The notes: generated from the sequence alone by a model not told the origin. A DNA stretch of 64,000 bases from an uncultured bacterium (GCA_903864835.1 CAIPHK010000041.1:25693-89692), one strand, 5' to 3'. Positions 14,562-45,675 are shown, counted from the stretch's first letter. Made by a program: numbers and translations.

Positions 14562-14585
14562 GATGCCACTTCCTTTCAGAAATTT

Positions 14586-19192: not shown

Positions 19193-22100
19193 CTAGAAAT
19201 TAATCGTCGCCTTAAACACCACCCCTGAAATCTCATAGCCAATTTGTTGAACCCCCGCCGCTGCACGGTCTTTATCATACGCATCCGTCACCCGCTTGAT
19301 CTGACCTTCACCCGTGATCGTTACATTTTCCAGATAGGGGTTACCCTTAAATGGCAGAATGATATTCAAGGTCAAGGACCCCATTTCAACGGTATCTTTA
19401 CGATCCACTACCGAATACCGAATTTGATCCCCCGTTCCTTTTTGGGTCTCCGTTTGCTGCAGCGTATTCAACGATTTCCCCCAGTTATCATCTCGGGTAT
19501 ACGTCATCGACACCTTAAAAATATCGGTCTGGATCGGCGAATAGCTCACCGACATTCGTCCAGAATATCCTCTACTTGAATTGCCCCCCTGGGTGTCTGT
19601 CAACCGAATCGAATAGTCATAACCGGTCGACAACCCGGGAAGTGGCCTAAATTCCGCCCCCACCGATCCCACCTTTTCGGTATACACCGCGCCCGATGTA
19701 TTTACAGTCGTGGTGAACTGATCGTTCAATCTAGATAATGACGCTGATCCCCGAAAACTGATAAATGAAAAGGGCGTCAACGTGGCCCCCAACGACCCCG
19801 CATATTTTCTCTGAAATATATGATCGGTAAATAATGTCCCGTTGGTCCGAACCTCAGCGGACTGCAGCTCCTCAATATTTAAGTTTAAACTGGGGGATCG
19901 ATATTGGTTTGACTGGGTGAATGACGCATTTCCATTCAATGCCAAAAATGAAAATGGCGAATACCCTACCGCCACGTTCAAACTTTCTGAAATGCGGTGA
20001 GTCAGACCCGTATTAGCCTGCGACAAGTTTCGACTTAAGGTATCCCGGGTCATCCGTCCCGCCCCTGAAATACTGATCAAATTCAACGGGTTTAACGCCA
20101 CATCCAGGCCCAGAGAATATTGATCCGTATTGTCTTGGGACACACTGCGTGTCACGACGTCACCAAACACTTGATCCACTTGTTGAAAACTGACTGCACG
20201 ATAGATGCTTTCATCTACCCCCGCCCGAAAAGTCCCCAAATTCAGCATAAAAATTGTCGGTATTCCAATCATAATCGCGCCAGGATCAAACGATAGATTT
20301 TGAACTCGGCGATCAAAGGGACTCTCCATCAATGTTTTATTGCTCGTTGCCGAATCCGCAGTTATATCGAATCGTTGGGATTCCCTCTTATAATCCAAAC
20401 TAAGCCCGTAAGAAAATTTATCCAATAAAAAAATGGGCGGGCGAATATCCAATTTGCCTGACAATGACCGATAGGTCCGAGAGCTCGAATTTTGGGAGGC
20501 AGTCTGGGTTTGGGCATCATCCACGGAATTGTTGAGGTCCATCGTGTACCCGATTCGACTCAGAGACACCCCTGGCACTGGCGAAAACGCGTTATACGCC
20601 ACCGTTTGGCTATTGTTGTTGATCCGCTTTAAATCGTCGTTTTCTCGCGACTCTGTTTTCCCATAGCTGTAGGTCAAAAACGACCCCCTCAATACGCCGA
20701 CCAGCAGATTGTCGTCGCTCAACCCTAAATAAGTTAATAACCCCGGCGGTGAAAATGTACTCACTTGATATCGGACATCGTTCGACAGTTGCCCCTTTTG
20801 ACCCGACAGCGGGCTAAACCGTTCAGAATTGGACAACGACCCACCGATATTCAACCACCCATAGGGCCGATACGACGTATCCACCCGGTAATTCGTCACT
20901 CGATTCGGGGTGCCGGATACGTCGTTGGAAATCGAATTTTGTTCCTCTGTCGAAAAATCCATCCCGCCATCCATCATTGGAAGCGGTTGAAATCTCGATC
21001 CTACTCCGATCTTACGGGAAAACGAGCGGTTAATGGTTTGAAGATTCGTCGCCGACGTCAGCGCCCGGACGGTGGTCTGGGCATATTCAAAATTGGGGCG
21101 GACACTCGTATCCCCCAGCACCAACAACCGATTCAACTTCAACTCGGTCGACAATTGATAGGAATCGGTTTCTGTATTTCGACGATCAAATCCGTCCAAC
21201 ACCCCAGACACCGATTTTGAAAAACTACGATTAAACAAGTATCGAGCCCCCCCCGCCGAAAACCCAATACCCGTATCCCAGGACATGCTGGCGGCGTCAT
21301 CCACATAGATATTCCCCGTTGCGCCGTCTACCGACGGGTCGGAATAACTCATGTTGTATCGAAACGTTTGGCTAAAATCGATCGCATTAAACCAAAGCAT
21401 TTTGGCGCGAATCCCTAAGTCATCGGTGTGTTTATACAAATTGTCTTTGACGCCTGCGGGCGGTAAATATTGCTCAAATCGACGGTATTCCGCCGAAATC
21501 CATTGATTCTCCGCCCGCCGGTAGTCGATCCCCCCACCGAATGACACCGTCCCCCGTGGCGCTTGAATCGGCGAAATTGGAGAAAAATCTTTGTCCACCG
21601 CCTTGATATCCCCCCGAATCGTCCATGGCCCGTCCTGAAACTGCGTCGCCACTTTTGACGCAAAACGATACCCCTTCGACGCACCGGCCCGGGTCTGTCC
21701 ATTGGGATCAATATATTTAAACTGAACCCGAATTTTATCTGTTGCTACCGGATTTAAATTGATAAATCGAAACGTCCCATTCACATAGTTAATGGAGTAG
21801 TTTTGGTCTCGAGTTTGCGGTCTGTCATTCAAAAAAACCAGTTCTGAATTCTCGATAATATTGCGAAATCCCAAACTGTAGGTTGCCGCGCCGCCCTGGC
21901 CCGCCCCAACAAATTCGGTCTGTAATTGCTCCCGAGTCAGGTTGTTTTCAGCCCCAGATAATTCGGTATCCACTCGCCACGATTTGGACAACTGAGCCCC
22001 TAAGGTCAATCCAAATTGACGCTGCGAGATCGTACCGGCATCGGGCACAGATTCGGGGGCATGATCATACGTGATCATGATTCTTTGGCCGGACGCCGGA

Positions 22101-24700
22101 TAACTATCCAAATACCGCTGGGCGGTCCAGTTGGGGTCAATATCTCCCTTTTTGAAAAACTTGATACTCACAAGATCGTCGCCATCAGCCCCATAATTAA
22201 CGATATAGTCTCGGCTCACAGTTAACGGGACATACTCGCTGGTCACGCTATCAAAAAGTCGCACAGTCTTCATTCCATTAAATCGAATAGGCACATCGGT
22301 GGGATTAAACGCAGGCGAATGATTCACATATTCGCTCACCCCCACGCCTGCCCCTTGGAAAATGTAGGTCGTCTGATAACTTTTTCGGAATTGGTACGAT
22401 ACCGCCGCAGGGCTACTCCCCACCGTCGAATTAACCGTAAATAGGCCGGTGTACGAATCGACTGAAAAGGTATTGGGTTCGGTCACATTTCCAGACACGT
22501 AGGTAAACAGCTGCCCATTCACGGTCAAAATAATTTTATCCGGATTCGCAATCGGGTTATTGACCACAGTGAAGGAATTGCCGGAAAACGTGACATTTTC
22601 AGAACTCACCGAGACCAGAAGCTCATCTTCTTGGCCCTTAGCGTATTCATCGAGGTAGGTCACCCCAAAATTGATCGGCGAACCTGAGGTACTGCCTGAG
22701 GTACCAACGGTATCCATCCGAACTACCCGATATTTCACGGTGATAATCGTCGGATATTTAATCGGATAGAAAAATTCCAATTTACCTTCGGCATCGTTCA
22801 ACGTGTAGTCCACCGTTGAGTTCAACACATTTCGGTCGTAAATGACGACTTCCGAATCGTCCAACACGTCGGTATTACTCAATGAATACGGGCCCCTGGA
22901 ATCCTGCCCAATCAAATCGTCAGTGACTTCGAACGTGTCATAGCTGGAGTAATTTACCGTCACCGAATCCCCCACCCCCAATGGCCGCTTAACAAAAACC
23001 AACTTTCCTTTCCGGGCCCGAACCACATAGTCCAAATTGCGCCGCAACGTCACTCCGTTCAAAATCACCTCATCGGATCCCAGCACGATCGCGTTCGACT
23101 TCAGGTCGATATTCATCGTACCGATCCAACTCTGATTCGATGATGCCGTCACATTAAAGGGCTCGGTGGTTCTTACCAACCGTGGCACTTTCTCCAGCAC
23201 TTCGGTGGCTTTCCAGACGTATTGAGCTCCCAAAAAATTCTTTCGTGACAACACCGGAATAAAGTCTTCAATGGGGTTTGTAAATTCATACACAATTTCA
23301 ATGTGATCCGACGGGCCCTTCACCGTATTGAACTTCACGACCCCATCAAAATAGTTGACGACATAGTCTCGCCCTTCAGATTGGGGGGCATTGTTCACCC
23401 ATACTCTGACCGAATCGTTCAGGAGGGATCGAACCCCCACGTTATAGTCGCGCAGTCCATTTCCATCCGACTCAAATTTTTTGGGTTCCGACCGTTGCTT
23501 TCCTGCGGCAAAAATAATATTCCAATTGGGATCCGAATTGGTGTACCGAACCCCGTTTAATGATTTCCGATAGTTAATGAACTCCCCATTTTTAAACTCC
23601 GCATCCAAGTGAAAAAAGGTGAGATCCTGCTTTTGATATTTCACTGCAACATCGTATTTTCCCGGGAAATCCGGCTCTTGTTCGATGTCATAATGAACCG
23701 ACAAATCATCCGCCAACTTCCCGTCGATATTAAACCGAAACCTCATGTCAAATTTGGGACTCCCTAACAATACGTCGCTCGGCAATTTGGTATACACCGG
23801 GTCCCGCTGAATCATTCCCCACCGGTTATCCGTCGCCGACAATTCTCCCAATTTGGGGCTGTAATCTCGTCCGCTAATCTTCATTTCATAAAACCCATCC
23901 ACGTCCAATTGGGGATACCGACTACTGGGCCGTGGGGGGAACCGAAATACCTCATCAATCGAGGGGCGATAGGTATATACCGGGCGGGTCCGAAATAGAT
24001 GCCGACTCACTGTTGGCGAGCCGGGGCCAGCCGATGCCGTCGGTAATTTCATTGAGTCGATCGTCTCTGAACGCGGGATATCCGTGTCCAAAAATTGGCG
24101 GATTTTAGATGATGCAAAGTTAGTCGTCGTCACGGAGGTTTCCGTTGGGACTTGAGGACTCGGCGTCGCCACCAACATATCCAACTTTGGAACGGGAGTG
24201 AGTGTCGGTGTTGCTGTCGGAACCTCGACGGTATTTTCAGTCACTAATACCGGGCCACTGGTCGGAATCTCCGCCGCCACAATTGCATTTTCTGTCGGCA
24301 ATAAGGAATTGGGCGTCACGTCAACTCGGTTGATCTCCGCTATTTCCGCCACGACATCAAGCACCGGTTCAAGAACCGCTGCCGGAACCACCATTCCCAA
24401 CAATGTAATCGGCGGCGGAATAACACCCTCGTACGGTACGGTTGCCGACCTAAGTACCCACACCCGAAAATCGTCATAGGTTATGACCTGAAAAAAAGTT
24501 TCGTTCCCAGTTACCACTTCAAATATCGTGCCAGAAAATGCCGAATATTTAATCGCCGCAGTTTCGTCCGGTGCCACTCGAAATACAGCGGATTGACTCC
24601 CAATTTGGACATACGTGGTCGCCGCGATGCTAACGGCGAAAACGCCAACCAGAAGAACAGTCATCAGGGCAACGATGGTTCGGACTATTGGGGAACCCAT
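19193..24700 (-). CDS. Large beta-rich envelope protein (1,835 aa) with N-terminal hydrophobic signal/anchor; outer-membrane barrel-like or TamB/SprA-class, function unknown
   Basis: N-terminus IVRTIVALMTVLLVGVFAVSIAA is hydrophobic; long Ser/Thr/Asn/Tyr/Gly-rich body with alternating patterns; C-terminal residue Phe (..KATINF). Start may be at 24664 instead. Confidence 0.6.
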   Translation of the reverse strand: MGSPIVRTIVALMTVLLVGVFAVSIAATTYVQIGSQSAVFRVAPDETAAIKYSAFSGTIFEVVTGNETFFQVITYDDFRVWVLRSATVPYEGVIPPPITLLGMVVPAAVLEPVLDVVAEIAEINRVDVTPNSLLPTENAIVAAEIPTSGPVLVTENTVEVPTATPTLTPVPKLDMLVATPSPQVPTETSVTTTNFASSKIRQFLDTDIPRSETIDSMKLPTASAGPGSPTVSRHLFRTRPVYTYRPSIDEVFRFPPRPSSRYPQLDVDGFYEMKISGRDYSPKLGELSATDNRWGMIQRDPVYTKLPSDVLLGSPKFDMRFRFNIDGKLADDLSVHYDIEQEPDFPGKYDVAVKYQKQDLTFFHLDAEFKNGEFINYRKSLNGVRYTNSDPNWNIIFAAGKQRSEPKKFESDGNGLRDYNVGVRSLLNDSVRVWVNNAPQSEGRDYVVNYFDGVVKFNTVKGPSDHIEIVYEFTNPIEDFIPVLSRKNFLGAQYVWKATEVLEKVPRLVRTTEPFNVTASSNQSWIGTMNIDLKSNAIVLGSDEVILNGVTLRRNLDYVVRARKGKLVFVKRPLGVGDSVTVNYSSYDTFEVTDDLIGQDSRGPYSLSNTDVLDDSEVVIYDRNVLNSTVDYTLNDAEGKLEFFYPIKYPTIITVKYRVVRMDTVGTSGSTSGSPINFGVTYLDEYAKGQEDELLVSVSSENVTFSGNSFTVVNNPIANPDKIILTVNGQLFTYVSGNVTEPNTFSVDSYTGLFTVNSTVGSSPAAVSYQFRKSYQTTYIFQGAGVGVSEYVNHSPAFNPTDVPIRFNGMKTVRLFDSVTSEYVPLTVSRDYIVNYGADGDDLVSIKFFKKGDIDPNWTAQRYLDSYPASGQRIMITYDHAPESVPDAGTISQRQFGLTLGAQLSKSWRVDTELSGAENNLTREQLQTEFVGAGQGGAATYSLGFRNIIENSELVFLNDRPQTRDQNYSINYVNGTFRFINLNPVATDKIRVQFKYIDPNGQTRAGASKGYRFASKVATQFQDGPWTIRGDIKAVDKDFSPISPIQAPRGTVSFGGGIDYRRAENQWISAEYRRFEQYLPPAGVKDNLYKHTDDLGIRAKMLWFNAIDFSQTFRYNMSYSDPSVDGATGNIYVDDAASMSWDTGIGFSAGGARYLFNRSFSKSVSGVLDGFDRRNTETDSYQLSTELKLNRLLVLGDTSVRPNFEYAQTTVRALTSATNLQTINRSFSRKIGVGSRFQPLPMMDGGMDFSTEEQNSISNDVSGTPNRVTNYRVDTSYRPYGWLNIGGSLSNSERFSPLSGQKGQLSNDVRYQVSTFSPPGLLTYLGLSDDNLLVGVLRGSFLTYSYGKTESRENDDLKRINNNSQTVAYNAFSPVPGVSLSRIGYTMDLNNSVDDAQTQTASQNSSSRTYRSLSGKLDIRPPIFLLDKFSYGLSLDYKRESQRFDITADSATSNKTLMESPFDRRVQNLSFDPGAIMIGIPTIFMLNLGTFRAGVDESIYRAVSFQQVDQVFGDVVTRSVSQDNTDQYSLGLDVALNPLNLISISGAGRMTRDTLSRNLSQANTGLTHRISESLNVAVGYSPFSFLALNGNASFTQSNQYRSPSLNLNIEELQSAEVRTNGTLFTDHIFQRKYAGSLGATLTPFSFISFRGSASLSRLNDQFTTTVNTSGAVYTEKVGSVGAEFRPLPGLSTGYDYSIRLTDTQGGNSSRGYSGRMSVSYSPIQTDIFKVSMTYTRDDNWGKSLNTLQQTETQKGTGDQIRYSVVDRKDTVEMGSLTLNIILPFKGNPYLENVTITGEGQIKRVTDAYDKDRAAAGVQQIGYEISGVVFKATINF

Positions 24701-32502: not shown

Positions 32503-33821
32503 TGACCAATGCCGCTACGCCCACCTGTTCATTTTGCGGAAAACCCCAACCAATGGTGACCACGTTAGTCATTGGTCCAGATGCCAACATTTGCGACCAA
32601 TGTGTACGTGTGTGTTTGGATATCTCTGGAGGGACAACTGAACCCGGTGCGACTACCCCGAAAGAAACCGCCACACCTGCTGGGGAGAGTCCGTTAAAAG
32701 TAGCGGAGGCCCCTGTCCCTCAAGAATCGACTCCCATCGACCCTCCTAAACCGGCTGAAATCTATGCATTTCTCGATCAGTACATCATCGGGCAATCCCA
32801 GGCCAAGCGGATTTTATCCGTGTCGGTATACAACCATTACAAACGGTTGTTTGGTGCAGAGCCAGAAGGCTTCGACGGTGTCGAAATTCAAAAAAGCAAC
32901 GTTTTATTAGTTGGCGCAACGGGAACCGGAAAAACGTTATTTGCCCAAACCTTGGCGAGACTCCTCAATGTACCGTTTACCATCGCAGATGCCACCACAA
33001 TTACCGAAGCAGGGTATGTCGGGGAAGACGTTGAGAGCATGTTATTTCGGCTACTTCAGGTCGCCAACCATGACGTCAAACTCGCAGAATCCGGAATTAT
33101 CTATATCGATGAAATTGATAAAATTTCCCGAAAATCCGAGAACCCCTCGATTACCAGGGATGTCTCTGGGGAAGGCGTTCAACAAGCCCTGTTAAAAATG
33201 CTCGAAGGGTCGTTAGTCAACGTACCCGTTCGTGGCGGACGAAAAAATCCGCAAGGCGAATTTATGACAGTGAATACTCAAAATATTCTATTTATTACGG
33301 GCGGCGCGTTTCATGGAATTGAGTCGATCGTTCGCCAACGACTCAACGAAAAACAAATTGGATTTTTATCGGAAACTGAAAAAGTCAAAGTCTCGGAAAC
33401 CGACATTTTTGAGCATATACAAGTGGAAGATCTTCAAAAATTCGGATTGATCCCCGAATTGATCGGACGGCTCCCAATTGTTGCTCCCTTAAAAGAACTC
33501 GACGAAGACGCATTGGTCAAAATTTTGACCGAGCCCAAAAATGCCATTACTAAACAATACGCAAAACTCTTGGCCATGGATAACGTCTCGATCCATTTCG
33601 AACCCAAAGCGCTTCGCAAAGTGGCTCAAATTGCGGTCCTGAAAAAAATGGGAGCCCGAGCGCTCCGTGCGATTATGGAAACTATCATGTTGGACACGAT
33701 GTTTGCCGCTCCAGGAACACCCGGAACCAGCGTGACCATTTCCGTGGCCGATGTCGACCGTTACGCGGACGAAAAACTCTCAAAAACCCTTCGAAAGAAG
33801 CTGGCAACCAAGGATCATTAA
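32502..33821 (+). CDS. clpX: ATP-dependent Clp protease ATP-binding subunit ClpX
   Basis: N-terminal zinc-binding CSFCGK..CDQC, Walker [12 protein letters not shown]; start overlaps the clpP stop as TAATG. Confidence 0.92.
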
Positions 33822-34717
33822 TGGTTAGCCAAACAATTCCCGCATCCGTAACTCTCCTTCAGACAGTGTCTGAAACGTTAGCGGGATGGATTGATTGGAT
33901 CCAATCGGAAGGCCCAGAGTGGACGGCCGTTCGGTCGGGCCTAACGGGCACACCCACCCCTGAATCCACGCGGGTTCTACAAACCATGCTTCTGGCCACC
34001 TTAACGATGTTTGAAGGTGTGGGCACACCCTCGATCGCTGGGATCACGCCGACCGACAACGGGATCACCGTCCATTGGGTGGGAGGATCCTCTGACACCC
34101 TAACCTGGGGTGCCAACGACGCTCACTTTATTCGATTTTCCCATTACGTCGCGCACCGGGTACTGGGCCTCCCCGCCCAAGGCAAAAAAACAGCGGTATA
34201 TCCCAATGTGATCCCTGGGGTCAAAACCAAATTGTCCTATTACTTGTCGGCCCTTACGACCACCCACTCCCGAGTGACCGGCTTGATCCAGTCCGATATC
34301 AGTCATAGTTTTGATGGCAATGTGGACCCCGTTTTTTTGTTTGTGGTGTTGGGTTGCCTTCCCTTGGATCAGCTCAATGCATTGTTCTTGTATATTCAGC
34401 GATTTCTTCCCGACGGGCTCAGTATCAAAAATGCCACGGGCAAATCGGTCATGGTATCTCAACTGTTTCAACCGGCCACCGACGTTCGGTTTATGGTCGA
34501 AAAAACAAATTTATACCTCGATCTCTTTACGACCCCCCATTTGCCCATCATTCGGGAAATTACACGGGCGAAAACGATTGCATACTTTCAGAAGCTGATG
34601 GCGACACCTGCGGTAAAAGACGGGGTATTAGAGAACCTTAAGGGCATCATTACGTATCAAATTACCCCCAGGACTCAACTCTATAGCTTGCTGAACCGAA
34701 TTATAGATCGGATTTAA
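33821..34717 (+). CDS. Hypothetical protein (298 aa)
   Basis: ORF whose start overlaps the clpX stop as TAATG. Confidence 0.5.
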   Translation: MVSQTIPASVTLLQTVSETLAGWIDWIQSEGPEWTAVRSGLTGTPTPESTRVLQTMLLATLTMFEGVGTPSIAGITPTDNGITVHWVGGSSDTLTWGANDAHFIRFSHYVAHRVLGLPAQGKKTAVYPNVIPGVKTKLSYYLSALTTTHSRVTGLIQSDISHSFDGNVDPVFLFVVLGCLPLDQLNALFLYIQRFLPDGLSIKNATGKSVMVSQLFQPATDVRFMVEKTNLYLDLFTTPHLPIIREITRAKTIAYFQKLMATPAVKDGVLENLKGIITYQITPRTQLYSLLNRIIDRI

Positions 34718-35017: not shown

Positions 35018-35794
35018 ATGAAAGCGGTGATTTTAGCGGGTGGGTTGGGCACCCGAATTTCAGAAGAAACCCATCTCAAACCGAAACCGATGATCGAAAT
35101 CGGGGGTCGCCCGATTTTATGGCACATCATGAAAGGGTACTCCGAACACGGTATCCGAGAATTTATTATCTGCTGCGGGTACAAGGGGTACCTCATCAAA
35201 GAATATTTCGCGAACTACTTTCTTCATATGTCCGATGTCACTTTCAACATGCGTGATAACACAATGGAAGTCCACCAACAAAATGCGGAAGATTGGAAGG
35301 TCACTCTCGTTGACACCGGGGAAGCAACAATGACTGGCGGGCGGTTGAAACGGGTGGCCAGTTTCCTTTCTGGCGAAGACGCATTTTGCTTTACGTACGG
35401 CGATGGCGTTAGTGATGTCGACATTACCGCGTCCATTAATTTTCACCGTCAGCACGGGAAATGGGCGACGCTCACGGCAGTATGTCCACCGGGTCGATTC
35501 GGGGCTCTTGATATCCGTCAAGATAGCCTAATCTCGGCCTTCAAAGAAAAACCACAAGGCGACGGAACTCGCATAAACGGCGGTTTTTTTGTCCTATCTC
35601 CCAAGGTTATCGATTTAATTCATTCTGACGACACCTTGTGGGAGCGCGAGCCCTTAGAATCATTGGCGGCACAGGAACAATTGAGAGCCTTTTTGCACGA
35701 CGGATTTTGGCAACCAATGGATACGTTGCGCGATAAAACCGTGCTTGAGGGCCTATGGGAAGAGGGCCGCGCGCCCTGGAAGATATGGGCGTAA
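35018..35794 (+). CDS. rfbF: Glucose-1-phosphate cytidylyltransferase (CDP-glucose synthase)
   Basis: [45 protein letters not shown]; start at ATG 35018 with AAGGAA upstream. Confidence 0.85.
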
Positions 35795-36840
35795 CACCGT
35801 CGTTTTGGAAAGGTAAACGCGTCTTCCTGACCGGCCACACTGGGTTTAAGGGGAGTTGGCTCTCGATTTGGCTCACTCACATGGGGGCAACGGTCACAGG
35901 ATACGCATTACCCGCACCCACTAATCCCAGTCTTTTTGAACTTGCCTCGATCGCAAACCATATTCACCACGTCGAGGGGGATATTCGAAACGCGGATGGG
36001 CTGATTGAAGCCATGCAAACCGCTGGTCCGGATATCGTGATTCACATGGCGGCACAACCCCTCGTCCGATACTCGTACGACCATCCAGTGGAAACCTTTT
36101 CGGTCAACGTATTAGGGTCTGTAAACCTCTTTGAAGCCATCCGGAAAACGCCCTCGGTTCGCGCCGTCGTTAACGTCACCACCGATAAATGTTACGACAA
36201 CCGAGAATGGATTTGGGGCTACCGCGAAAATGAAGCCCTTGGCGGGGCTGACCCATATAGCAGTAGTAAAGCCTGTTCCGAATTGGTGACAGCCTCCTAC
36301 CGACGGTCATTTTTTGAGCCAGAAGGCCGGGTATTTCTGGCGTCGGCCCGAGCGGGCAACGTGATTGGCGGAGGCGACTGGGCGTCAGACCGATTGATCC
36401 CCGACGCGATTCGAGCCCTGCAGACCGATTCCGTCGTTCGAATTCGAAATCCCCATGCCATACGGCCGTGGCAACACGTGCTGGAGCCCCTTTCCGGATA
36501 TTTAATGGTCGCGGAACGGTTGTTTGAACACGGATCCGCATTTGCCGACGCATGGAATTTTGGCCCGCGCGATCAGGACGCTCGCCCGGTTTCGTGGGTG
36601 GTGAGCCAGGTGGTAACCGCATGGGGAAGTGGCCGTTGGGTCATTGACGAGGGCACCCATCCCCACGAAGCGCACTATTTAAAATTGGATTCATCGAAGG
36701 CGGGCCACCAACTGGGGTGGCAGCCGCGGTTGTCGTTATCCGACGCCCTGACGCTGACGGTGGATTGGTACCGAATAGTCCAAAACCAGGTCCCCGCATG
36801 GGATGCCGTAATTAATAATATTCAAAAATTTTCAGAGTAG
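35785..36840 (+). CDS. rfbG: CDP-glucose 4,6-dehydratase
   Basis: Start placed at ATG 35785 (10-nt overlap with rfbF); [20 protein letters not shown]ossmann N-terminus and extended-SDR architecture. Confidence 0.8.
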
Positions 36841-36851
36841 GACACCCCATC

Positions 36852-38168
36852 ATGACCGAAAAAATGAATCAGTTACGCAATGAAATTCGAGGCTTGGTCC
36901 ATCAGTATTCAATCCATAAGTATTCTCACCAAGAATTTTCACCAGGGGTCACCCCGGTTCCGCCATCCGGCAAGCTATTAGACGGTCATGAACTTGAAAT
37001 GATGGTGGATGCCGCATTAGACGGATGGTTAACCACCGGACGGTTTAACGATGAGTTTGAGGAGCGTTTAGCTCAGTTTTTGGGTGTTAAACACCTCATT
37101 ACGGTCAATTCTGGATCATCTGCAAACTTAGTGGCATTTTCAACATTAACGTCCCCCATGCTAAAAGAGCGGGCCATTTTGCCCGGCGACGAAGTGATCG
37201 GAGTCGCTGCTGGATTTCCGACCACCGTAAACCCCATTATCCATTACGGTGCAGTCCCCGTATTTGTGGATGTTGAAATTGGAACGTATAACATCGACGT
37301 CACCCAACTTGAGGCGGCCATTAGCCCAAAAACCAAAGCGATTATGCTGGCCCACACCTTAGGTAATCCCTACAACTTGGAGGTGGTGACTACCCTGTGT
37401 AAAAAATACAACTTATGGCTCATTGAAGATTGCTGCGATGCACTGGGATCGACATACAACGGTCAAACCGTCGGAACATTTGGGGACATTGGCACGCTTA
37501 GTTTTTATCCCGCCCACCATATTACGATGGGGGAAGGCGGTGCCGTATTTACTAACAATCTCAAACTGAAGCGAATTGCAGAGAGTTTTCGGGATTGGGG
37601 GCGTGATTGTTTCTGCCCACCGGGTAAAGACGATACGTGTGGTAAACGCTTTTGTTGGAAATTGGGGGAACTCCCCGAAGGCTATGACCATAAATATATT
37701 TATAGCCATCTGGGATACAACCTCAAAATCACCGACATGCAAGCGGCTTGTGGCTTAGCACAGTTGGATAAAGCCCCCTCATTCATCGAAAAACGAAAAG
37801 CCAATTTTGCGTATTTAAAATCTCAACTGACCCCGTTGTCCGAATTTCTAATTTTACCTGAAGCCACCACGAATAGTGACCCGTCATGGTTTGGATTTCC
37901 GATCACACTCCGAGACTCAGCGCCTGTATCTCGTCTGGAGTTAACCCGGTACTTGGATTCAACAAAAGTAGGTACGAGACTGCTGTTTGCCGGCAATTTA
38001 CTGCGCCAGCCCTACATGAAAGACCGGCCCGTTCGCGTGGTGGGTGAATTAAAAAATACCGATGTGGTCATGAATCAAACATTCTGGATCGGAGTGCAGC
38101 CGGCATTGACTGAGTCGATGTTGGACCATGTTACGGCGTCGATTCGATCTGGATTAATGAGCCGATAG
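36852..38168 (+). CDS. rfbH: CDP-4-keto-6-deoxy-D-glucose 3-dehydrase-like PLP/PMP enzyme (DegT/DnrJ/EryC1 family)
   Basis: 438 aa; aminotransferase-fold features and a Cys-rich segment [23 protein letters not shown] typical of RfbH/E1. Confidence 0.75.
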
Positions 38169-38860
38169 TGCACCCCAAATTATTATTGTTCGGGGCAACA
38201 GGCGCCATCGGGGGCGAGATTTCTCGCCGATTTACCGATGCAGGGTGGGCCGTTATCGCGATTACCCGATCACCGGGTCATGCCGATGCCGTGGTATGGA
38301 ACCCACTCGACGCGAATGACAACGGCTCCCACGTGATGACTCAGGGTCCGTTTGACGCAATATGTTGGGCGCAAGGGCAAAATTGTAACGATTCGATTGA
38401 TTCGTTTGATCTTGAGTTGCACCGCCAACTCTATGACTCTAACGTTGGATATATTTTACAATCGTTGGCCCAAGTGCGCCGCGCAAACGTCCTCAAATCC
38501 GGCGCAAAACTGGTGGTAATCAGCTCCATTTGGCAAGAGATCGCACGACAAAACAAGTTGTCGTACACCGTTACTAAGGCCGCGTTAAAGGGTCTCATTC
38601 ACTCCCTTGCCGCCGACTTGGCCGCAGACGGCATTCTGGTTAACGCCGTTTTGCCCGGTGTCTTGGATACCCCCATGACCCGAAGCAACTTAGGCCCAGA
38701 TCAAGTCTCGACGGTCGAATCGGCAACCTTGTTTAATCGATTGCCGACCCTATACGATGTGTCGGGGGCCGTGCTGGCGTTGTGTGGGCCCACCAATTCG
38801 GGGATAACAGGACAATTTATTCAAGTAGATTTGGGGTATTCAAATGTCCGAATTATTTAA
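38168..38860 (+). CDS. Short-chain dehydrogenase/reductase (SDR)
   Basis: GTG start; N-terminal LLFGATGAIGGEI nucleotide-binding motif; SDR-like YTVTK segment. Confidence 0.65.
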   Translation: MHPKLLLFGATGAIGGEISRRFTDAGWAVIAITRSPGHADAVVWNPLDANDNGSHVMTQGPFDAICWAQGQNCNDSIDSFDLELHRQLYDSNVGYILQSLAQVRRANVLKSGAKLVVISSIWQEIARQNKLSYTVTKAALKGLIHSLAADLAADGILVNAVLPGVLDTPMTRSNLGPDQVSTVESATLFNRLPTLYDVSGAVLALCGPTNSGITGQFIQVDLGYSNVRII

Positions 38861-39929
38861 TATTAAGATTTCATCCAATTCAAAGTCTTATTCGGTGATC
38901 GTTGGTCCTGACATTGTCCAATCCCGATTGGAAAATCAGCCGATGTTTCGAATTGTCGATGATCGACTGAGCGCCCTTTTTCCGTTTACAAATCATGAGC
39001 CTGTAGTTCACGTTTCCGCCACCGAAGACAAAAAGACGTTGGAATCCGTTGCAACAATCATTGAAACCCTGCGATCCAAAGGGGCCACCCGAAATGCCCA
39101 TATCGTGGCCCTTGGCGGTGGGATCATTCAAGACGTAGCCACATTCGCTGCATCCAGCTATATGAGAGGCATTCCTTGGATCTATTGCCCAACCACATTG
39201 TTGGGAATGGTCGATTCGTGTATTGGGGGTAAATCATCGATTAACGTGGGCCAGTATAAAAACATTGCTGGCAATTTTTATCCCCCCGATGAAATTTGGA
39301 TCGATACCGTTTTTTGCGACACGTTATCGAGCGTTCAAAAAGCAGAAGGATTATGTGAGGCCGTCAAAATTTGTTTCGCTGGTGGGGAGCCCTTTAACGA
39401 CTATCTTATGTGGGTGGATACCTATCCCGACTATTTGACTGATCCCTCCGCGTTAGCCCCCATCATTGGGATTGCGTTATCTACTAAAAAGCGGTTTATC
39501 GAAGAAGACGAATTCGATAACGGAATTCGTCGCCTCCTCAATTTTGGACACACATTCGGCCACGCCATCGAGGGGGCCACTCACTATGAGATTAGCCATG
39601 GAATAGCGGTCGGATTAGGTGTCATTGCCGCCATACATATTTCCGTTCAATTGGGGCGAGTATCAGCGGATCATCCCCGTGTCCAAGCGCTCTTAAACCA
39701 GGTTCAAAATCTCCTACGAACAGTGCCATCGTTATCGTCTACCATTCAAGAATTAGATACCCATGCCGCAATGACCTGTTTTAGATCCGACAAAAAACAT
39801 TCATCCACCCATTTTGCGATGATTTTGTTAAATGAGGCGGCGGAACTCGAATTTAGTCAACATCCCCGAACTGACGCGATCGAAGCCCTGATTCAAACCA
39901 CATTTGGCCACATAAAGGAGCAAACATGA
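38844..39929 (+). CDS. 3-dehydroquinate synthase-like enzyme (sugar phosphate cyclase superfamily)
   Basis: ALGGGIIQDVATFAAS nucleotide-binding motif and NFGHTFGHAIE metal-binding motif. Confidence 0.7.
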   Translation: MSELFNIKISSNSKSYSVIVGPDIVQSRLENQPMFRIVDDRLSALFPFTNHEPVVHVSATEDKKTLESVATIIETLRSKGATRNAHIVALGGGIIQDVATFAASSYMRGIPWIYCPTTLLGMVDSCIGGKSSINVGQYKNIAGNFYPPDEIWIDTVFCDTLSSVQKAEGLCEAVKICFAGGEPFNDYLMWVDTYPDYLTDPSALAPIIGIALSTKKRFIEEDEFDNGIRRLLNFGHTFGHAIEGATHYEISHGIAVGLGVIAAIHISVQLGRVSADHPRVQALLNQVQNLLRTVPSLSSTIQELDTHAAMTCFRSDKKHSSTHFAMILLNEAAELEFSQHPRTDAIEALIQTTFGHIKEQT

Positions 39930-41680
39930 TCAAGTATAGTGATTGTTTGGCGGAGTGGCTCTGTCAACTCGGATATACCCATTGCTTTTATGTGGGTGGC
40001 GGAAACATTATGCACCTGGTCGAAAGTTTAAGCCGACAAATGCCTTGTATACCGGTCATCCATGAAGTCGCGGCCGGAATTGCAGCCGAGTACTTTAATG
40101 CGTTACACCCTGACAAAAAAGCACTGGCATTGGTAACCGCTGGTCCGGGGCTAAGTAATATCGTCACCGCTATTGCGGGCGCCTTTGCCGAAAGCAGAGA
40201 ACTACTCGTCATCGGCGGACAAGTTAAAACGGCGGATTTATCCCGAGGGAAATTGCGCCAACGCGGCATCCAAGAAATTGATGGGGTATCCTTGGTTCAA
40301 TCGATCACCAAATGTGCCGAGCGTTGGGATGCGCCGGTCGACTACGACACGTTTTACAGCCGTATTTCCCAATCATGGGAAGGGCGAAAAGGCCCCGTCT
40401 TTATCGAAATCCCCATTGATGTACAGGGTATAAAAGTAGAATTCATCAGCAAATTAGACCAAATCACCCCGACTCCCCATAGTGGCATTTCGGAAGGGGA
40501 CTGGACCCAACTACGCCATTACCTCTCCCAAGCGACGCGTCCATTGATCTTAGTTGGTGGCGGAGTTGATCAACGCGTTGCGCAGTCACTATTTCCGTCG
40601 TGGACCACGATTCCGATTGCTACGACATGGAACGGTGCGGATCGCATTTCGGCGGATCACCCCCTGTATGTGGGACGTCCGAATACCTGGGGACAACGAT
40701 CTGCGAACTTAATTTTGCAACAATCGGATTGCGTTATTGCACTAGGAACCCGATTAGGAATGCAACAAACCGGATTTAATTGGCAAGAATTTGTGCCCCA
40801 TGGGGTGGTCATTCATGTTGATATTGATCCTGCCGAATTGGAAAAAGGTCACCCGCGGATCGATCTTCCGATATGTGCCGACGCCAATGACATCTTGCGT
40901 CGATTAGCGACGATCTCTGATATTGACTGCAGTGATTGGATTCAATACTGCCGGATGATTCGGTCCGAAATTCCGGTATTTGAGCCCGTAAATACAACCG
41001 GAGGCGACTTTATTTCCCCATATCATGTTGTTGAAACACTATCGACGCTCAGCGGAAACGACGATGTGGTTGTTCCTTGCAGTAGCGGCAGTGCATTCAC
41101 CATCATGATGCAAGTGTTTACGCAAAGGGGCGCTCAACGGATTATCACAAACAAGGGCATGGCATCGATGGGATACGGATTGTCAGGCGCCATCGGTGCG
41201 GCATTCGCTGCGCCAGGCCAGCGGGTGATATTGGTCGAGGGAGATGGCGGATTTGCCCAAAATCTACAAGAAATCGGAACCGCTGCAATTAATCAACTTA
41301 ATCTCAAAATTTTTATTTTTGATGATTCAGGATACGCGTCCATTCGAATGACCCAGCGCAACTATTTTGGCGGCCGTTATGTGGGGTGTGATCGGGAAAC
41401 AGGGTTAGGTCTTCCGAACTGGCAGAAATTATTCGATGCATGGGGCGTTCCTGCAATGAGAGTAAATCGTGGATTTGAGTTGACGGAATCGTTTCAGTCG
41501 CTTTTTAATTCAACAGGACCCGCCGCATTTATAGTTTCTGTGGATCCAGATCAAACTTATTTTCCAAAAATTACAAGCCGCATCCTTGAGAATGGGCAGA
41601 TAGTCTCAAACCCGCTACATCTGATGACCCCTGAATTGGACGAAACCCGCTGGCACCGCGTCGCAAAATATATAAAATAA
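39926..41680 (+). CDS. Thiamine-diphosphate-dependent enzyme, acetolactate-synthase-like (YerE-like candidate)
   Basis: 584 aa; ThDP-binding GDGGF..N motif (VEGDGGFAQNLQEIGTAAINQLNLKIFIFDDSGYASI); AAGGAG SD; start overlaps upstream stop as ATGA. Confidence 0.75.
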   Translation: MIKYSDCLAEWLCQLGYTHCFYVGGGNIMHLVESLSRQMPCIPVIHEVAAGIAAEYFNALHPDKKALALVTAGPGLSNIVTAIAGAFAESRELLVIGGQVKTADLSRGKLRQRGIQEIDGVSLVQSITKCAERWDAPVDYDTFYSRISQSWEGRKGPVFIEIPIDVQGIKVEFISKLDQITPTPHSGISEGDWTQLRHYLSQATRPLILVGGGVDQRVAQSLFPSWTTIPIATTWNGADRISADHPLYVGRPNTWGQRSANLILQQSDCVIALGTRLGMQQTGFNWQEFVPHGVVIHVDIDPAELEKGHPRIDLPICADANDILRRLATISDIDCSDWIQYCRMIRSEIPVFEPVNTTGGDFISPYHVVETLSTLSGNDDVVVPCSSGSAFTIMMQVFTQRGAQRIITNKGMASMGYGLSGAIGAAFAAPGQRVILVEGDGGFAQNLQEIGTAAINQLNLKIFIFDDSGYASIRMTQRNYFGGRYVGCDRETGLGLPNWQKLFDAWGVPAMRVNRGFELTESFQSLFNSTGPAAFIVSVDPDQTYFPKITSRILENGQIVSNPLHLMTPELDETRWHRVAKYIK

Positions 41681-41695
41681 AAGAGGGTTATTAAT

Positions 41696-42493
41696 ATGAA
41701 CAGTCGCGAAAGAAAAATGTTGGATATATTAAAACGCCTTAAGACTGAATTTGGCGTAGTGTCCGTCAAGGCAGAATTTGAAGCGGAAGGAACCCGAACG
41801 GACGAATTACTTCGTTTAATCGAAATTGCACGCCGCGCTGATTTGGGTGTCGCGCTCAAAATTGGTGGCTGCGAAGCGATTCGGGATTTGATTGAAAGCA
41901 AACAAATCGGCGTCGAATTTATTATCGCCCCGATGGTTGAAACCCCTTATGCACTCTCAAAATTTATTGAGGCTAAAAACAAAATATATTCGGTTGAAGA
42001 ACAGCAAGATACCCAATTTTTGTTTAACCTGGAAACAATCACCGCGTTCAATCATTTGGACAAAATGATTAAAATCGCAACTCAAGCCGACGGCGTGGAC
42101 GGGGTAGTATTTGGCCGAGTCGACTTTTCGGGTTCATTGGGCTGGAGCCGCGACAACATTAACACCGATGAAATTACCGATTATTGCATCCAGACCGGCA
42201 CTGCATGTAAACAGGCAGGGATCGACTTGGTCGTCGGTGGGGCGGTGTCGATGGATGCCATTTCGATGTTAAGTAAAATGTATGCAAACTATCTCACTCG
42301 ATTCGAAACCAGAAAGATTATTTTCCCCGGTCAGTCGGTTGAAATTGGAAACCTGGATCAAGCCTTATTATTAGCGGTACATTTTGAATTATTGTGGCTT
42401 CAAAATAAACGGGATTATTATAACCTCATTGCCTCCGAAGATGACCGACGCATCGAAATGTTAGATAGCCGATGGAAAATTCTGTCTAACTAG
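41696..42493 (+). CDS. HpcH/HpaI aldolase / citrate-lyase-beta-like protein (putative)
   Basis: [12 protein letters not shown] resembles the (I/V)PK(V/I)E(S/T) motif of the HpcH/CitE family; weak. Confidence 0.4.
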
Positions 42494-42496
42494 CAA

Positions 42497-43450
42497 GTGC
42501 CTATCCCTCATTTATTTTTTACGGGCGGAACCGGATTTTTTGGGAAAGCGTTACTTCGGTACTGGACCGCAACCACGGTAGATCGCCCCAAGCAGGTTTC
42601 TATTTTGACGCGATCGCCCAGTGGTTTTTTGGACCGCTATCCCGAGTTCAAAACTCTCGACTGGGTAACCTTTTACGAAGGGGACATCACCCGTAAGGAC
42701 ACTTTTCCGGATATTTCCTGTAGCCACGTATTACATGCGGCAACCGATTCAACGGTTGGCCCCAACTTACCCCCAATCGAACGCTATGATCAGATCGTGT
42801 CTGGCACTCGAAACGTTTTAGACTTTTCAGTGCAGGCAGGGGCCAAACGATTTTTACTCACCAGCACTGGCGGCGTCTATGGCCAGCAGCCTCAAGAGAT
42901 GGATAAAATCCCAGAAACGTACTGCGGATTCCCCGATCCCCTCCGCCCCCAGAATGCACATTCCATTGCCAAGCGAGCGGCAGAACATCTCTGTATCTTA
43001 TACGGCCACCAATTCGGGATCGAACCCGTCATCGCGCGATGTTTCGCATTTATAGGCAGTGATCTCCCGCTCGATGTCCATTTTGCAATCGGCAATTTTA
43101 TTCGGGATGCAACTCGGGGCCAAGATATCATCATTCAAGGTGATGGCACGTCGGTTCGATCCTATCTCGATCAACACGACCTGTCGGTATGGCTCACCCG
43201 GTTATTACAGACCGAACACCCTGAAACCGCCTACAACGTCGGTTCAGAAACTGCAATTTCAATCAAAGACCTGGCGACCTTGGTCAGAGACTTGGTACAC
43301 CCCGCGGGATCCGTTCAAATTTTGGGCCAGCAGGGCAATAAAGCCGGAACACGCTACGTTCCCGATACCCGGCTTGCCAGGGAAACCTTAGGGTTGTCGG
43401 AAACGGTGTCATTACCCGATGCCATCCGCAGGGCATTGCCGCCATGCTAA
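42497..43450 (+). CDS. NAD-dependent epimerase/dehydratase family protein
   Basis: GTG start; N-terminal FFTGGTGFFG Rossmann motif; extended-SDR length. Confidence 0.7.
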   Translation: MPIPHLFFTGGTGFFGKALLRYWTATTVDRPKQVSILTRSPSGFLDRYPEFKTLDWVTFYEGDITRKDTFPDISCSHVLHAATDSTVGPNLPPIERYDQIVSGTRNVLDFSVQAGAKRFLLTSTGGVYGQQPQEMDKIPETYCGFPDPLRPQNAHSIAKRAAEHLCILYGHQFGIEPVIARCFAFIGSDLPLDVHFAIGNFIRDATRGQDIIIQGDGTSVRSYLDQHDLSVWLTRLLQTEHPETAYNVGSETAISIKDLATLVRDLVHPAGSVQILGQQGNKAGTRYVPDTRLARETLGLSETVSLPDAIRRALPPC

Positions 43451-44610
43451 CCATTTTGGTTCCGACCATCGGGCGCATCCAAAAATTAACGAGGGGAATA
43501 GACTCGTGGATTCGCTGTATTCAATCCGCAAAAGCCGTCGATAAGGTCACGATACTCATTGCCGACAACCATTCGACCGATGGAACCGCAGCCTACGCCC
43601 AATCAATGGCACTACAGCACTCTTTTATTAGGTATGAACGCCAACTCGCATTTTGTCCGTCGGCAGAGGACTCTATCAAGGCCGCATCGCAATTTTGTAC
43701 GACACAGTATGTGTGGACCTTTGGGGACGACGACGAAGTCTCGGAAAATGCACTCACCGTCGTATTAGAGGCCTTACAATCCCACCCCCGCTTCTTAGTC
43801 GTGAATATGAATTGCCGCGATGGCGACCGAAGCATCCCCGGGTTCGACGTCGATTCGAAAATCATTCAATATCCCACCGGATGGCCGTTGTTTCAGAATT
43901 TTGGGGTCACTTCCGGTACGACATGCGTCAGTTCCATTTGCGTCCCACTCGACTTTTATAAAGACCCGATATTAAAAAATTTAAATACCGTATCTCCCAT
44001 TTATAGCCTGTCATGTGCGCTGCTCGTGTGGAGTTACAACCAACCAGTGACACTGGTTGGGAATCGACTATTCGATTATTTTTACAACGTTCCCACGGAA
44101 GAATTAGGTCGAATAACAGGGCTAGCACAATCGAACCAACAACTTCCCCACTACTATTGGCATTTGGGGCTACTGAACTTACTTCGTTCTGTATCCCAAC
44201 ATACCGGAATCTCGCTATCGGAGTTGCTATTGATGAGAGAACCCATATCCCGTGGCGTCGGTGCCCCGGAGCCGCTGGGCAGAGAGTACAAACCGTGCAT
44301 CGAGTTTATCGCGTTGTATGTTGATAAAGAGATGAACGCCTCGTTCGTTGAAATTCAGAATCGTCGTACATCGTTGCATGAATTGATTGTCAATATTCAG
44401 TCTGCTTTTTCAGAATGGACCGGAGTCGATCACTCAAAATCGTTTCAAACCATACACCGATATCTTTGTCAGTTGGAACACGCGCTTGCCGCATTGCCGA
44501 GTCGTTCTATGGCAGGAACTTGGGCGAGACTCAGATTGCGGTGGGGAAAACCGTTTTCTAAGTTAGACGAATTGACTAAATCCTGGATCAAAGAATCCAA
44601 TCGGACCTAA
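43444..44610 (+). CDS. Putative glycosyltransferase (GT2-like)
   Basis: N-terminal ILVPT...D(N)HSTDGT pattern resembling GT2 and an FGDDD acidic motif; divergent. Confidence 0.4.
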   Translation: MLTILVPTIGRIQKLTRGIDSWIRCIQSAKAVDKVTILIADNHSTDGTAAYAQSMALQHSFIRYERQLAFCPSAEDSIKAASQFCTTQYVWTFGDDDEVSENALTVVLEALQSHPRFLVVNMNCRDGDRSIPGFDVDSKIIQYPTGWPLFQNFGVTSGTTCVSSICVPLDFYKDPILKNLNTVSPIYSLSCALLVWSYNQPVTLVGNRLFDYFYNVPTEELGRITGLAQSNQQLPHYYWHLGLLNLLRSVSQHTGISLSELLLMREPISRGVGAPEPLGREYKPCIEFIALYVDKEMNASFVEIQNRRTSLHELIVNIQSAFSEWTGVDHSKSFQTIHRYLCQLEHALAALPSRSMAGTWARLRLRWGKPFSKLDELTKSWIKESNRT

Positions 44611-44613
44611 TTG

Positions 44614-45675
44614 ATGGAATCAGCACTTCATTTAGAAACCCCGTCTGGCCCGGTTCCTCAATTGGCGATCTCAATTCCCACGTGTAACCACCCTGAATTG
44701 GTGGACCAGTTCATACGCGCAATTCTACCGAGTTTAGGTCGCTTCCAAATCCCGGTGTACGTTACCGACAATAGTGATAACGACGAAACCGAACGCATTG
44801 TACAAAATCTCATAAAAGAACATTCGGCTATTTTCTATAGAAGAAACGCCCAGAACCTGCGGTTTGATGCCAATTGCGCACAAGCCATTACGTGGCCCCA
44901 CGCCGAGTACGTCTGGCCCGTTGGCGATGGGATGTTAATCAATGAGCCGATGATTGAGACCATTCTTAACTCTCTCGAAAAAAAACCGGATTTAGTCTTT
45001 TTAAATTATCGGGTTCCTGATTTAGGACAACGCGTCATTGAGCCATCACATCAGCACGAATGGATCGTCAGTCACGCGTGGCATTTGACGTCATTGGGGG
45101 CCACAATCTTCGGGACAAAACCGAGAGAAGTCGCCCGAAAGGCCACCACTAAAGAGTTTGGTCGTTGGAAAAACTTTTTTCATCTGGGCCTCATTTTGCG
45201 CTGTTCAACAACCGAAAAGGCCCGCTGTCTATGGATTGGGCCCCACGCGGTGCGGGGGAATCCGAATAAAACGGGGAGTGGTTGGGTCGGGATTGCGATC
45301 CAAGTGTTTGCCGGAGATTGGGCACGGTTAATTCTAAGCTTCTCGGATGTTTTCTCTCCTAATGAAACTCAGGATCTTATCCGGTCACATGGGGTAAAAA
45401 CCCGTATATTTGGGTGGCGAGATCTGCTGCAATTCAGAAAAGATGGCCGATTCTCCAAACCGATTTTTGACGCGTATCAAACCGAAATAAAATTAGCGGT
45501 ACCGCTGCCAATCCGTTGGTTGCAATTGCTCGCCGAAGCACCCGATGCACGCGTCCATTGGCCTTCAATGGGGTGGGGATTGATGCTCCGACTTTGCTGG
45601 CTTTTGGAGAAAGCCCAACAACTCGGGCAATTATTCGTTAAAAAATCCGCCCAGTCCGACTCGCTTCCAAAATAG
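44614..45675 (+). CDS. Putative glycosyltransferase (GT2-like), paralog of the preceding gene
   Basis: ISIPTCNHPELVDQFIRAI..VYVTDNSDNDETERIV pattern; ATG at 44614. Confidence 0.4.
   Translation: MESALHLETPSGPVPQLAISIPTCNHPELVDQFIRAILPSLGRFQIPVYVTDNSDNDETERIVQNLIKEHSAIFYRRNAQNLRFDANCAQAITWPHAEYVWPVGDGMLINEPMIETILNSLEKKPDLVFLNYRVPDLGQRVIEPSHQHEWIVSHAWHLTSLGATIFGTKPREVARKATTKEFGRWKNFFHLGLILRCSTTEKARCLWIGPHAVRGNPNKTGSGWVGIAIQVFAGDWARLILSFSDVFSPNETQDLIRSHGVKTRIFGWRDLLQFRKDGRFSKPIFDAYQTEIKLAVPLPIRWLQLLAEAPDARVHWPSMGWGLMLRLCWLLEKAQQLGQLFVKKSAQSDSLPK

Follow-up and report, generated by a model that had tools for sequence, protein, structure and literature searches.

Genes of the operon

In a stretch of 64,000 nucleotides (nt) from an uncultured bacterium (GCA_903864835.1, CAIPHK010000041.1:25693-89692; referred to below as the window, with positions counted from its first letter), which derives from metagenome assemblies, three enzymes are encoded in a row at positions 38844-42493: a protein resembling 3-dehydroquinate synthase (DHQS), a thiamine diphosphate (ThDP)-dependent carboligase and an enzyme with the fold of the HpcH/HpaI aldolases. 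An earlier note, made from the sequence, had singled out this trio as a source of unusual carbon-carbon chemistry for a branched sugar, a view that is borne out by the family assignments and the synteny. All three open reading frames (ORFs) were found on the + strand at these positions, and the sugar-cluster setting that the note had described is real, with rfbF, rfbG and rfbH upstream and an epimerase-fold reductase and two glycosyltransferase family 2 (GT2) genes downstream. The operon is best read as a cluster for a branched sugar of the caryophyllose type, the link to caryophyllose resting on annotation and on the literature.

Based on ORF and family calls, the trio is held in a single compact operon on the + strand (35018-45675), located downstream of tig-clpP-clpX-(unknown)-bolA. 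The gene order is rfbF, rfbG, rfbH, a 230-amino-acid (aa) short-chain dehydrogenase/reductase (SDR), the DHQS-like gene, the YerE-like ThDP carboligase, the HpcH-like gene, an extended-SDR reductase and the two GT2 genes, and adjacent genes either overlap or are 0-15 nt apart, with an overlap of 40 nt between rfbF and rfbG. The DHQS-like gene (38844-39929) encodes a 361-aa protein that belongs to the sugar phosphate cyclase superfamily (PF01761 and PF24621), the ThDP gene (39926-41680) a 584-aa putative branching enzyme with three TPP domains, and the HpcH-like gene (41696-42493) a 265-aa class II aldolase-fold enzyme that was recognised by Pfam and by an AlphaFold model. The 230-aa SDR (38168-38860), which was absent from the list of the earlier note, is of the classical type (Pfam adh_short_C2 and adh_short; GATGAIG and YTVTK motifs), and its stop overlaps the start of the DHQS-like gene by 17 nt.

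The genes for cytidine diphosphate (CDP)-4-keto-3,6-dideoxy-D-glucose (cytidylyltransferase, 4,6-dehydratase and E1) are all present and scored above the equivalog cut-offs. Glucose-1-phosphate cytidylyltransferase, which makes CDP-glucose, is encoded by rfbF (35018-35794, +; TIGR02623 equivalog, 462 bits, cut-off 300); its start is that of the gene call on an identical contig, the ORF listing alone giving an upstream TTG at 34940. CDP-glucose 4,6-dehydratase is encoded by rfbG (35755-36840, +; TIGR02622 equivalog, 498 bits, cut-off 278) and CDP-6-deoxy-D-xylo-4-hexulose 3-dehydrase, the E1 enzyme, by rfbH (36852-38168, +; NF011936 RfbH, 745 bits, cut-off 423). Downstream of the trio are the extended-SDR reductase (42497-43450, +; Pfam Epimerase, E 2e-32), with a putative YerF-like role on the acyl carbonyl of a new branch, and the two GT2-family glycosyltransferases (43444-44610 and 44614-45675, both +; Pfam Glycos_transf_2, 40.7 bits each), the start of the second again being that of the gene call on an identical contig. 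The unnamed gene between clpX and bolA (33821-34717, +) is a 298-aa ORF without a Pfam match, and its position is kept on identical contigs.

Conservation of the cassette in other genomes

Relatives of the DHQS-like protein at 40-60% identity were very numerous in metagenomes. A scan of GTDB species, which gave at least 30 loci of the family and at least about 50 aroB loci, was combined with contig look-ups to collect 34 loci with a DHQS-like relative (the sample does not contain Mycobacterium marinum, R. palustris or T. caryophylli), and neighbourhoods were counted by tblastn of the window proteins against the collected loci. The earlier note had proposed that the trio be checked for co-occurrence elsewhere and that its idea would fall if the three genes did not co-occur and grouped with aroB, ilvB and citE; the trio was found to recur across the 34 loci, and that outcome is clearly not what was observed.

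Of the 33 loci whose flanking sequence was long enough, 32 have an SDR homologue directly upstream of the DHQS-like gene and on its strand, no other gene being so constant a neighbour. The 17-nt overlap between SDR and DHQS-like gene is also kept (loci L001, L003 and L086-L089), which suggests co-translation of two enzymes that pass on a labile intermediate. A homologue of the HpcH-like protein (49-69% identical) was found within 5 kb in 26/34 loci, and either an HpcH-like or a NeuB-like gene was nearby in 28/34. A ThDP enzyme of the same class as that in the window (51-62% identical) adjoins in 21 loci and one of a second class (32-35%) in seven more, giving a ThDP enzyme in 28/34. About half of the loci carry rfbF and rfbG, 13 carry rfbH, and homologues of the extended SDR adjoin the cassette in most of the related loci. 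The hosts, drawn from at least five phyla, belong to the Beta-, Gamma- and Alphaproteobacteria, the Acidobacteriota and the Actinomycetota, together with one cyanobacterium. The gene order in Methyloradius palustris and Methylotenera is exactly that of the window, and in Pararobbsia it is permuted. Among the 48 genuine aroB loci analysed none had the cassette, the stray weak matches being a ThDP-like gene in L046 and an SDR upstream in L038; a weak SDR match upstream was also seen in L036, a locus placed neither with the family nor with aroB. The arrangement is thus far beyond chance. A homologue search that started from a Pseudolabrys member gave no Rhodopseudomonas among the named matches listed, a result that is uninformative either way.

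Two variants of the cassette bear on its function. In Serpentinimonas maccroryi (L001) a divergent NeuB-family gene occupies the position of the HpcH-like gene. Given that HpcH-type aldolases join pyruvate to an aldehyde and NeuB-type synthases join phosphoenolpyruvate (PEP) to an aldehyde, the product class should be a 4-hydroxy-2-oxo (3-deoxy-2-ulosonic) acid, which enzymes of both types make. The loci with the second class of ThDP enzyme (L008, L009, L010, L017, L020, L027 and L032) lack rfbH in six of seven cases and still carry the HpcH-SDR-DHQS-like genes, which therefore behave as a module that builds the donor whatever the acceptor sugar may be.

Other differences between the loci were also recorded. 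The second-class loci carry in addition a GtrA-like small membrane protein and a putative methyltransferase of about 310 aa without a family match. These genes suggest that another acceptor sugar is used and that glycosylation takes place in the periplasm, with polyprenyl phosphate as the carrier. The commonest extra neighbour, present in 20 of the 34 loci (e.g. L025, 14542-15513), is an ArnC/PgfS-like polyprenyl-phosphate GT2 of about 320 aa; the window is without it and has two GT2 genes of the soluble type instead. In the complete genome of S. maccroryi an insertion sequence element with an rve transposase is found (L001, 12894-16834) where locus L002 (4166-6566) has a methyltransferase gene. 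DHQS-family genes at 39-41% identity were also seen in a member of the Gemmatimonadales (L036) and in Desulfosudis oleivorans (L038), in both at about 9140-10860, with a weakly similar SDR (26-30%) directly upstream and no other cassette genes, and these may represent a related two-gene unit in another context.

The DHQS-like protein

The DHQS motifs named in the earlier note (GGG..D and NFGHTFGHAIE) were found in the protein as LGGGIIQD and LLNFGHTFGHAIE, and the Pfam matches were DHQ_synthase in the N-terminal part (E 4e-36) and DHQS_C (E 3e-26). Against the aroB equivalog TIGR01357 the protein scored 253.8 bits, under the cut-off of 305, and the best NCBIfam model was TIGR04425, 'AroB-related putative sugar phosphate phospholyase (cyclizing)', with 305.7 bits, under the cut-off of 400. 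Scores against PDB entries were 111-141 bits for DHQS, 108 for 2-deoxy-scyllo-inosose synthase and 98 for the synthase of 2-epi-5-epi-valiolone, indicating that the protein is not nearer to the other sugar phosphate cyclases. By neighbour joining the family is monophyletic and separate from 48 aroB proteins, to which its identity is 31% in the median and 38% at most.

The residues of 33 family members were compared with those of the 48 aroB proteins in one alignment. All catalytic positions with at least 90% conservation in aroB were identical in the DHQS-like family (in window numbering E61, K64, G91-93, D97, R108, D124, K130, N140, E172, K175, K215, D222, R229, N233, H236, H240, H252 and D316-K318). 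Fixed changes specific to the family were Q96, Y114, C126, S131, A173 and D225 together with the loss of the HGE glutamate; these substitutions have no known link to cyclisation, and loss of the aldol step is not derivable from the sequence. We take the kept residues, from the structure of Aspergillus nidulans DHQS, to be ligands of NAD and Zn, a phosphate-binding set (presumably R130, K152, N162, N268, H275 and K356 in that enzyme) and a set that binds the carboxylate and the ring (presumably K250 and R264). Because all of these are kept, the substrate should be a 3-deoxy-2-ulosonate phosphate resembling 3-deoxy-D-arabino-heptulosonate 7-phosphate (DAHP), and not glucose 6-phosphate or sedoheptulose 7-phosphate.

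A gene with the RefSeq name '3-dehydroquinate synthase family protein', MMAR_2329, is known from M. marinum (PMC12395582, supplementary table). No function for MMAR_2329 or for any DHQS homologue in a branched-sugar pathway was found in the part of the relevant literature that was searched, and searches that joined DHQS with branched sugar, lipooligosaccharide (LOS) or caryophyllose, or that were made on MMAR_2328-2330, returned no functional account.

The carboligase and the aldolase

The ThDP enzyme matched the N, M and C domains of TPP_enzyme in Pfam (E 1e-23 to 2e-30) and scored less than half of the cut-off for every acetolactate synthase model (for TIGR00118, 256 bits against 538). The closest PDB entry was 8rph, JanthE, with 272 bits over the full length, as compared with 194 bits for Escherichia coli acetohydroxyacid synthase I, and according to the ORF and family calls of the operon no ilvN-like small-subunit gene adjoins it. 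JanthE is the YerE-like enzyme of Janthinobacterium sp. HH01, and it takes ketones and long 2-oxo acids (PMC12188165); its ThDP motif is CDG, whereas the window protein has the canonical GDG. A YerE-like carboligase next to the sugar genes and a gene that appears, at the family level, to be an aldolase are features that the operon shares with acyl-branched sugar clusters.

The HpcH-like protein matched Pfam HpcH_HpaI (PF03328) with 38.8 bits against a cut-off of 25 over residues 62-180 only, and it matched no NCBIfam model; a profile search of the PDB with its family gave no match. The AlphaFold model has a pLDDT of 92, and the best folds in Foldseek were those of the class II pyruvate aldolases 3qz6, HpaI, HpcH and GarL (TM 0.55-0.61, 12-18% identity), with pyruvate kinase barrels scoring nearly as high. 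The invariant NxET (E113) and GRVDF (D143) match the IE(T/S) and GPxDL motifs of HpcH/HpaI and lie within the stretch aligned to YfaU 144-200, a fit that would make them the metal-binding glutamate and aspartate of that family; a counterpart of the catalytic Arg70 of HpaI was not identified in the protein. The family is well delimited (a search of 1.84 billion representatives gave 396 clusters at 50% identity with E <= 1e-30), and its identity across phyla is unusually high, 58-80%. We infer that the HpcH-like enzyme is the maker of the 2-oxo-acid donor used by the carboligase. A phosphonate pathway was also considered and rejected, PEP mutase not being present.

Proposed function of the operon

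In the scheme for acyl-branched sugars that was proposed and partly demonstrated by Steitz et al. in 2022, the functionalised 2-oxo acid produced by an aldolase is decarboxylated by a YerE-like ThDP enzyme, which places the acyl group on C4 of CDP-4-keto-3,6-dideoxyglucose, and a YerF-like reductase completes the branch (PMC9306805). Knock-outs of MMAR_2331, 2332 and 2333 (aldolase, ThDP enzyme and glycosyltransferase) lose caryophyllose (PMC9306805, PMC5706390), which is 3,6-dideoxy-4-C-(D-altro-1,3,4,5-tetrahydroxyhexyl)-D-xylo-hexose (PMC5706390). These mutants accumulate LOS-II*. The pathway as a whole can thus no longer be called undescribed, as it was in the earlier note, given that its logic of aldolase, YerE-like enzyme and reductase has been published (PMC9306805) and that the gene set including MMAR_2329 is found in the caryophyllose locus of M. 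marinum. Where the note had expected a branched-chain or carbocyclic unit, the branched chain is supported and the carbocycle is not, the known product of the gene set being acyclic, and its suggested assay with CDP-4-keto-6-deoxyglucose and pyruvate names the wrong acceptor, since rfbH gives the 3,6-dideoxy-4-keto sugar. Pyruvate is probably also wrong as the donor, being rejected by the related enzyme ErwE (PMC9306805). The branched-sugar pathway is known, and the new question is the role of the pair of SDR and DHQS-like protein.

On balance we are inclined to believe that the product of the operon is a 3,6-dideoxyhexose with a long branch, activated with CDP and of the caryophyllose type, which is transferred to a surface glycan. 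On the acceptor arm, RfbF, RfbG and RfbH would turn glucose-1-phosphate into CDP-4-keto-3,6-dideoxy-D-glucose, a conversion well supported by the family assignments. For the donor, tracing the caryophyllose branch back through the ThDP step leads by our own derivation to an acid that must be 2-oxo-4,5,6-trihydroxyheptanoate, that is 3,7-dideoxyheptulosonate, or DAHP in which a hydrogen replaces the 7-phosphate; its configuration, likewise derived by us from the altro descriptor, is D-ribo, making it the C4 epimer of DAHP.

From the family assignments and the synteny, both of which were observed, we infer three donor-building steps. The HpcH-like aldolase (or NeuB) would join pyruvate or PEP to erythrose 4-phosphate, giving 3-deoxyheptulosonate 7-phosphate, probably as the C4 epimer of DAHP. 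The chemistry of DHQS opens with NAD+ oxidation at C5, which is followed by beta-elimination of the C7 phosphate, and the DHQS-like enzyme would perform the same oxidation and elimination without cyclisation, an elimination that is proposed because it turns C7 into a methyl group, as the donor acid needs. The 230-aa SDR would then reduce the remaining carbonyl to give 3,7-dideoxyheptulosonate. Should the bound NADH reduce C5 again, as it does in DHQS, the target of the SDR would be C6. Should the hydride instead pass to C7, in the manner of the nucleoside diphosphate (NDP)-hexose 4,6-dehydratases, the target would be C5, in which case the pyranose would stay closed and a spontaneous aldol cyclisation would be avoided. 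In the coupling step the ThDP enzyme would, by analogy with YerE, ErwE and MMAR_2332, decarboxylate the acid and attach the resulting C6 acyl anion to the CDP-keto sugar at C4, after which the extended SDR would reduce the acyl carbonyl to give the 1,3,4,5-tetrahydroxyhexyl branch and the GT2 enzymes would transfer the sugar. We thus put forward, as a tentative proposal that is somewhat more apt to fail than to hold, that the DHQS-like protein is a 3-deoxyheptulosonate-7-phosphate phospho-lyase which together with the coupled SDR converts a DAHP-like acid to 3,7-dideoxyheptulosonate, a new route of deoxygenation and the missing source of the terminal methyl in caryophyllose-type sugars. Such a deoxygenation would be formally parallel to that by an NDP-hexose 4,6-dehydratase and a 4-ketoreductase.

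Several points weigh against this interpretation. The enol-pyranose, or 2,6-diketone, intermediate of DHQS cyclises spontaneously, and a route without cyclisation needs either rapid capture by the SDR or a conjugate reduction. The roles of the DHQS-like protein and the SDR are deduced from sequence, and the orthology between the M. marinum and window genes, likewise deduced, rests on RefSeq names and on actinobacterial loci with the same cassette. In the branch reductase of the window the YxxxK motif reads NAHSIAK, with the catalytic tyrosine replaced by histidine (42959-42961); the same histidine was found in an independent assembly (L004) and tyrosine in 17/17 aligned homologues, and in the window organism the activity of this ketoreductase may be weakened or changed. 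Neither the operon nor the recurrent neighbours in the related loci included an E3/rfbI-like gene. Two loci, in Trinickia acidisoli (L086, 10001-19443) and Pseudomonas mosselii (L087, 10001-19496), have HpcH-SDR-DHQS-like-reductase genes, rfbF/G/H and an ATP-binding cassette (ABC) transporter and no ThDP gene within 10 kb, an arrangement that contradicts the donor-module model unless a carboligase gene lies at some other place in these genomes. Finally, the published proposal for the aldolase is that pyruvate is joined to a free aldehyde (compound 28) and not to erythrose 4-phosphate (PMC9306805).

This last point leads to a different order of steps, in which the SDR and the DHQS-like protein would act before the aldolase and convert erythrose 4-phosphate to a 4-deoxytetrose (2,3-dihydroxybutanal), which the HpcH-like enzyme would then join to pyruvate. 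The same chemistry of elimination and ketoreduction would serve here, and NeuB-family enzymes, among which the Serpentinimonas protein falls, usually take unphosphorylated aldoses; however, the invariant R229, K215/216 and N233, which we take to hold the C1 carboxylate and the pyranose of DAHP, would be needless for a C4 aldose phosphate. This order agrees with the scheme published for MMAR_2331, pyruvate plus compound 28 (PMC9306805), and it would supply a deoxy-aldehyde that is otherwise unexplained. We regard it as unlikely. An improbable idea is that the DHQS-like protein is a true cyclase and that aldolase, DHQS-like protein and SDR make a carbocycle resembling dehydroquinate or quinate, or a caryose-like unit, in the glycan. 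The full catalytic set of DHQS is kept, the spontaneous ring closure described above would favour such a product, and the two loci without a ThDP gene would be accommodated; in addition, Burkholderia caryophylli has, together with caryophyllose, the carbocyclic sugar caryose, the origin of which is unknown (PMC9092360). Caryose is, however, a five-membered ring fused to a hexose and not a product of the DHQS type, and a product resembling dehydroquinate could not serve a ThDP enzyme as donor, for want of the 2-oxo acid group, although most of the loci have a ThDP enzyme close by. In M. marinum, the only organism with both the gene set and a known product, the side chain is acyclic and ends in a methyl group (PMC5706390).

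Two further explanations carry much less weight. If the SDR/DHQS-like pair acted on the nucleotide sugar, e.g. as a substitute for the E3 partner of RfbH or as a CDP-sugar oxidoreductase, the absence of E3/rfbI would be accounted for, and DHQS-fold enzymes are indeed NAD-dependent oxidoreductases. But the pair is kept in six of the seven second-class loci without rfbH and therefore cannot stand in for the E3 partner, the kept DAHP-type binding residues misfit a CDP-hexose, and E3 is an iron-sulfur flavoprotein with different chemistry, all of which makes this very improbable. That the genes are merely primary-metabolism paralogues lying by chance beside an O-antigen cluster is hardly credible: aroB, acetolactate synthase and HpcH/CitE are the nearest named families of the trio, but the aroB and ilvB equivalog cut-offs are not reached, the DHQS-like clade is apart from aroB, the cassette is kept across phyla and absent from aroB loci, and the genes overlap in one operon. 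The placing of the trio outside primary metabolism in the earlier note was thus correct.

If the favoured reading, with a non-cyclising phospho-lyase, is true, it would add a new reaction type to a well-studied superfamily, open a biocatalytic route to 7-deoxy-ulosonic acids as donors for ThDP carboligases, and explain how the terminal methyl group arises, both in the LOS of mycobacteria and in the surface glycans that many bacteria of soil and fresh water carry. Caryophyllose-bearing LOS of M. marinum modulate macrophage responses, and rare branched sugars shape the recognition of O-antigens. The caryophyllose-type cassette is no curiosity of mycobacteria or Burkholderia, given that it is common in the hosts listed above and that the aldolase family comprises about 400 clusters at 50% identity.

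Other features of the window

Some features outside the operon were also observed. A giant ORF of at least 4861 aa (1-14585, -) continues beyond the left end of the window and gave no Pfam match in its N-terminal 1500 aa; the GC skew of this region is strongly negative. An ORF of 1835 aa (19193-24700, -) without a significant Pfam domain is located between queA and the gatA/gatB side. Two AAA_14/DUF4143 ATPase genes (49644-50630, +, and 54734-55921, -), which follow closely on the glycan region, flank alcohol dehydrogenase-like and PEP carboxylase genes.

Comparison with known systems

AroB (EC 4.2.3.4) and the DHQS-like protein have in common the fold, the NAD and metal sites and every active-site residue that is conserved in aroB. 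They differ in that the DHQS-like proteins form a separate clade and score below the equivalog cut-off, in that the aroB loci analysed have no sugar cassette, and in the proposed outcome, which would be deoxygenation and not cyclisation.

The synthesis of yersiniose A by YerE and YerF in Yersinia pseudotuberculosis resembles the window system in its acceptor, CDP-4-keto-3,6-dideoxyglucose, in the addition of an acyl group to C4 by a ThDP enzyme and in the use of an NAD(P)H reductase. YerE, however, takes pyruvate as donor and forms a C2 branch without requiring an aldolase, an SDR or a DHQS-like protein, whereas the window has a four-enzyme donor module that predicts a C6 branch. In the erwiniose cluster of Pectobacterium atrosepticum (ErwE/F/I/J) the ThDP donor is a 4-hydroxy-2-oxo acid made by an aldolase, as is proposed here (PMC9306805). 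There the aldolase is of the BphI type and is accompanied by an acetaldehyde dehydrogenase. Acetaldehyde provides the terminal methyl, and a DHQS-like gene has not been reported for the cluster.

The closest likeness is to the LOS locus of M. marinum, in which MMAR_2329-MMAR_2336 hold the family set of the window in one block. By their RefSeq names MMAR_2331 is of the aldolase/citrate-lyase family, MMAR_2332 is ThDP-binding, MMAR_2333 is a GT2, MMAR_2334 is glucose-1-phosphate cytidylyltransferase (rfbF), MMAR_2335 is RfbH and MMAR_2336 is CDP-glucose 4,6-dehydratase (rfbG) (PMC12395582). The two loci differ in gene order and in the actinobacterial host, and in M. marinum the sugar is carried on LOS and not on lipopolysaccharide.

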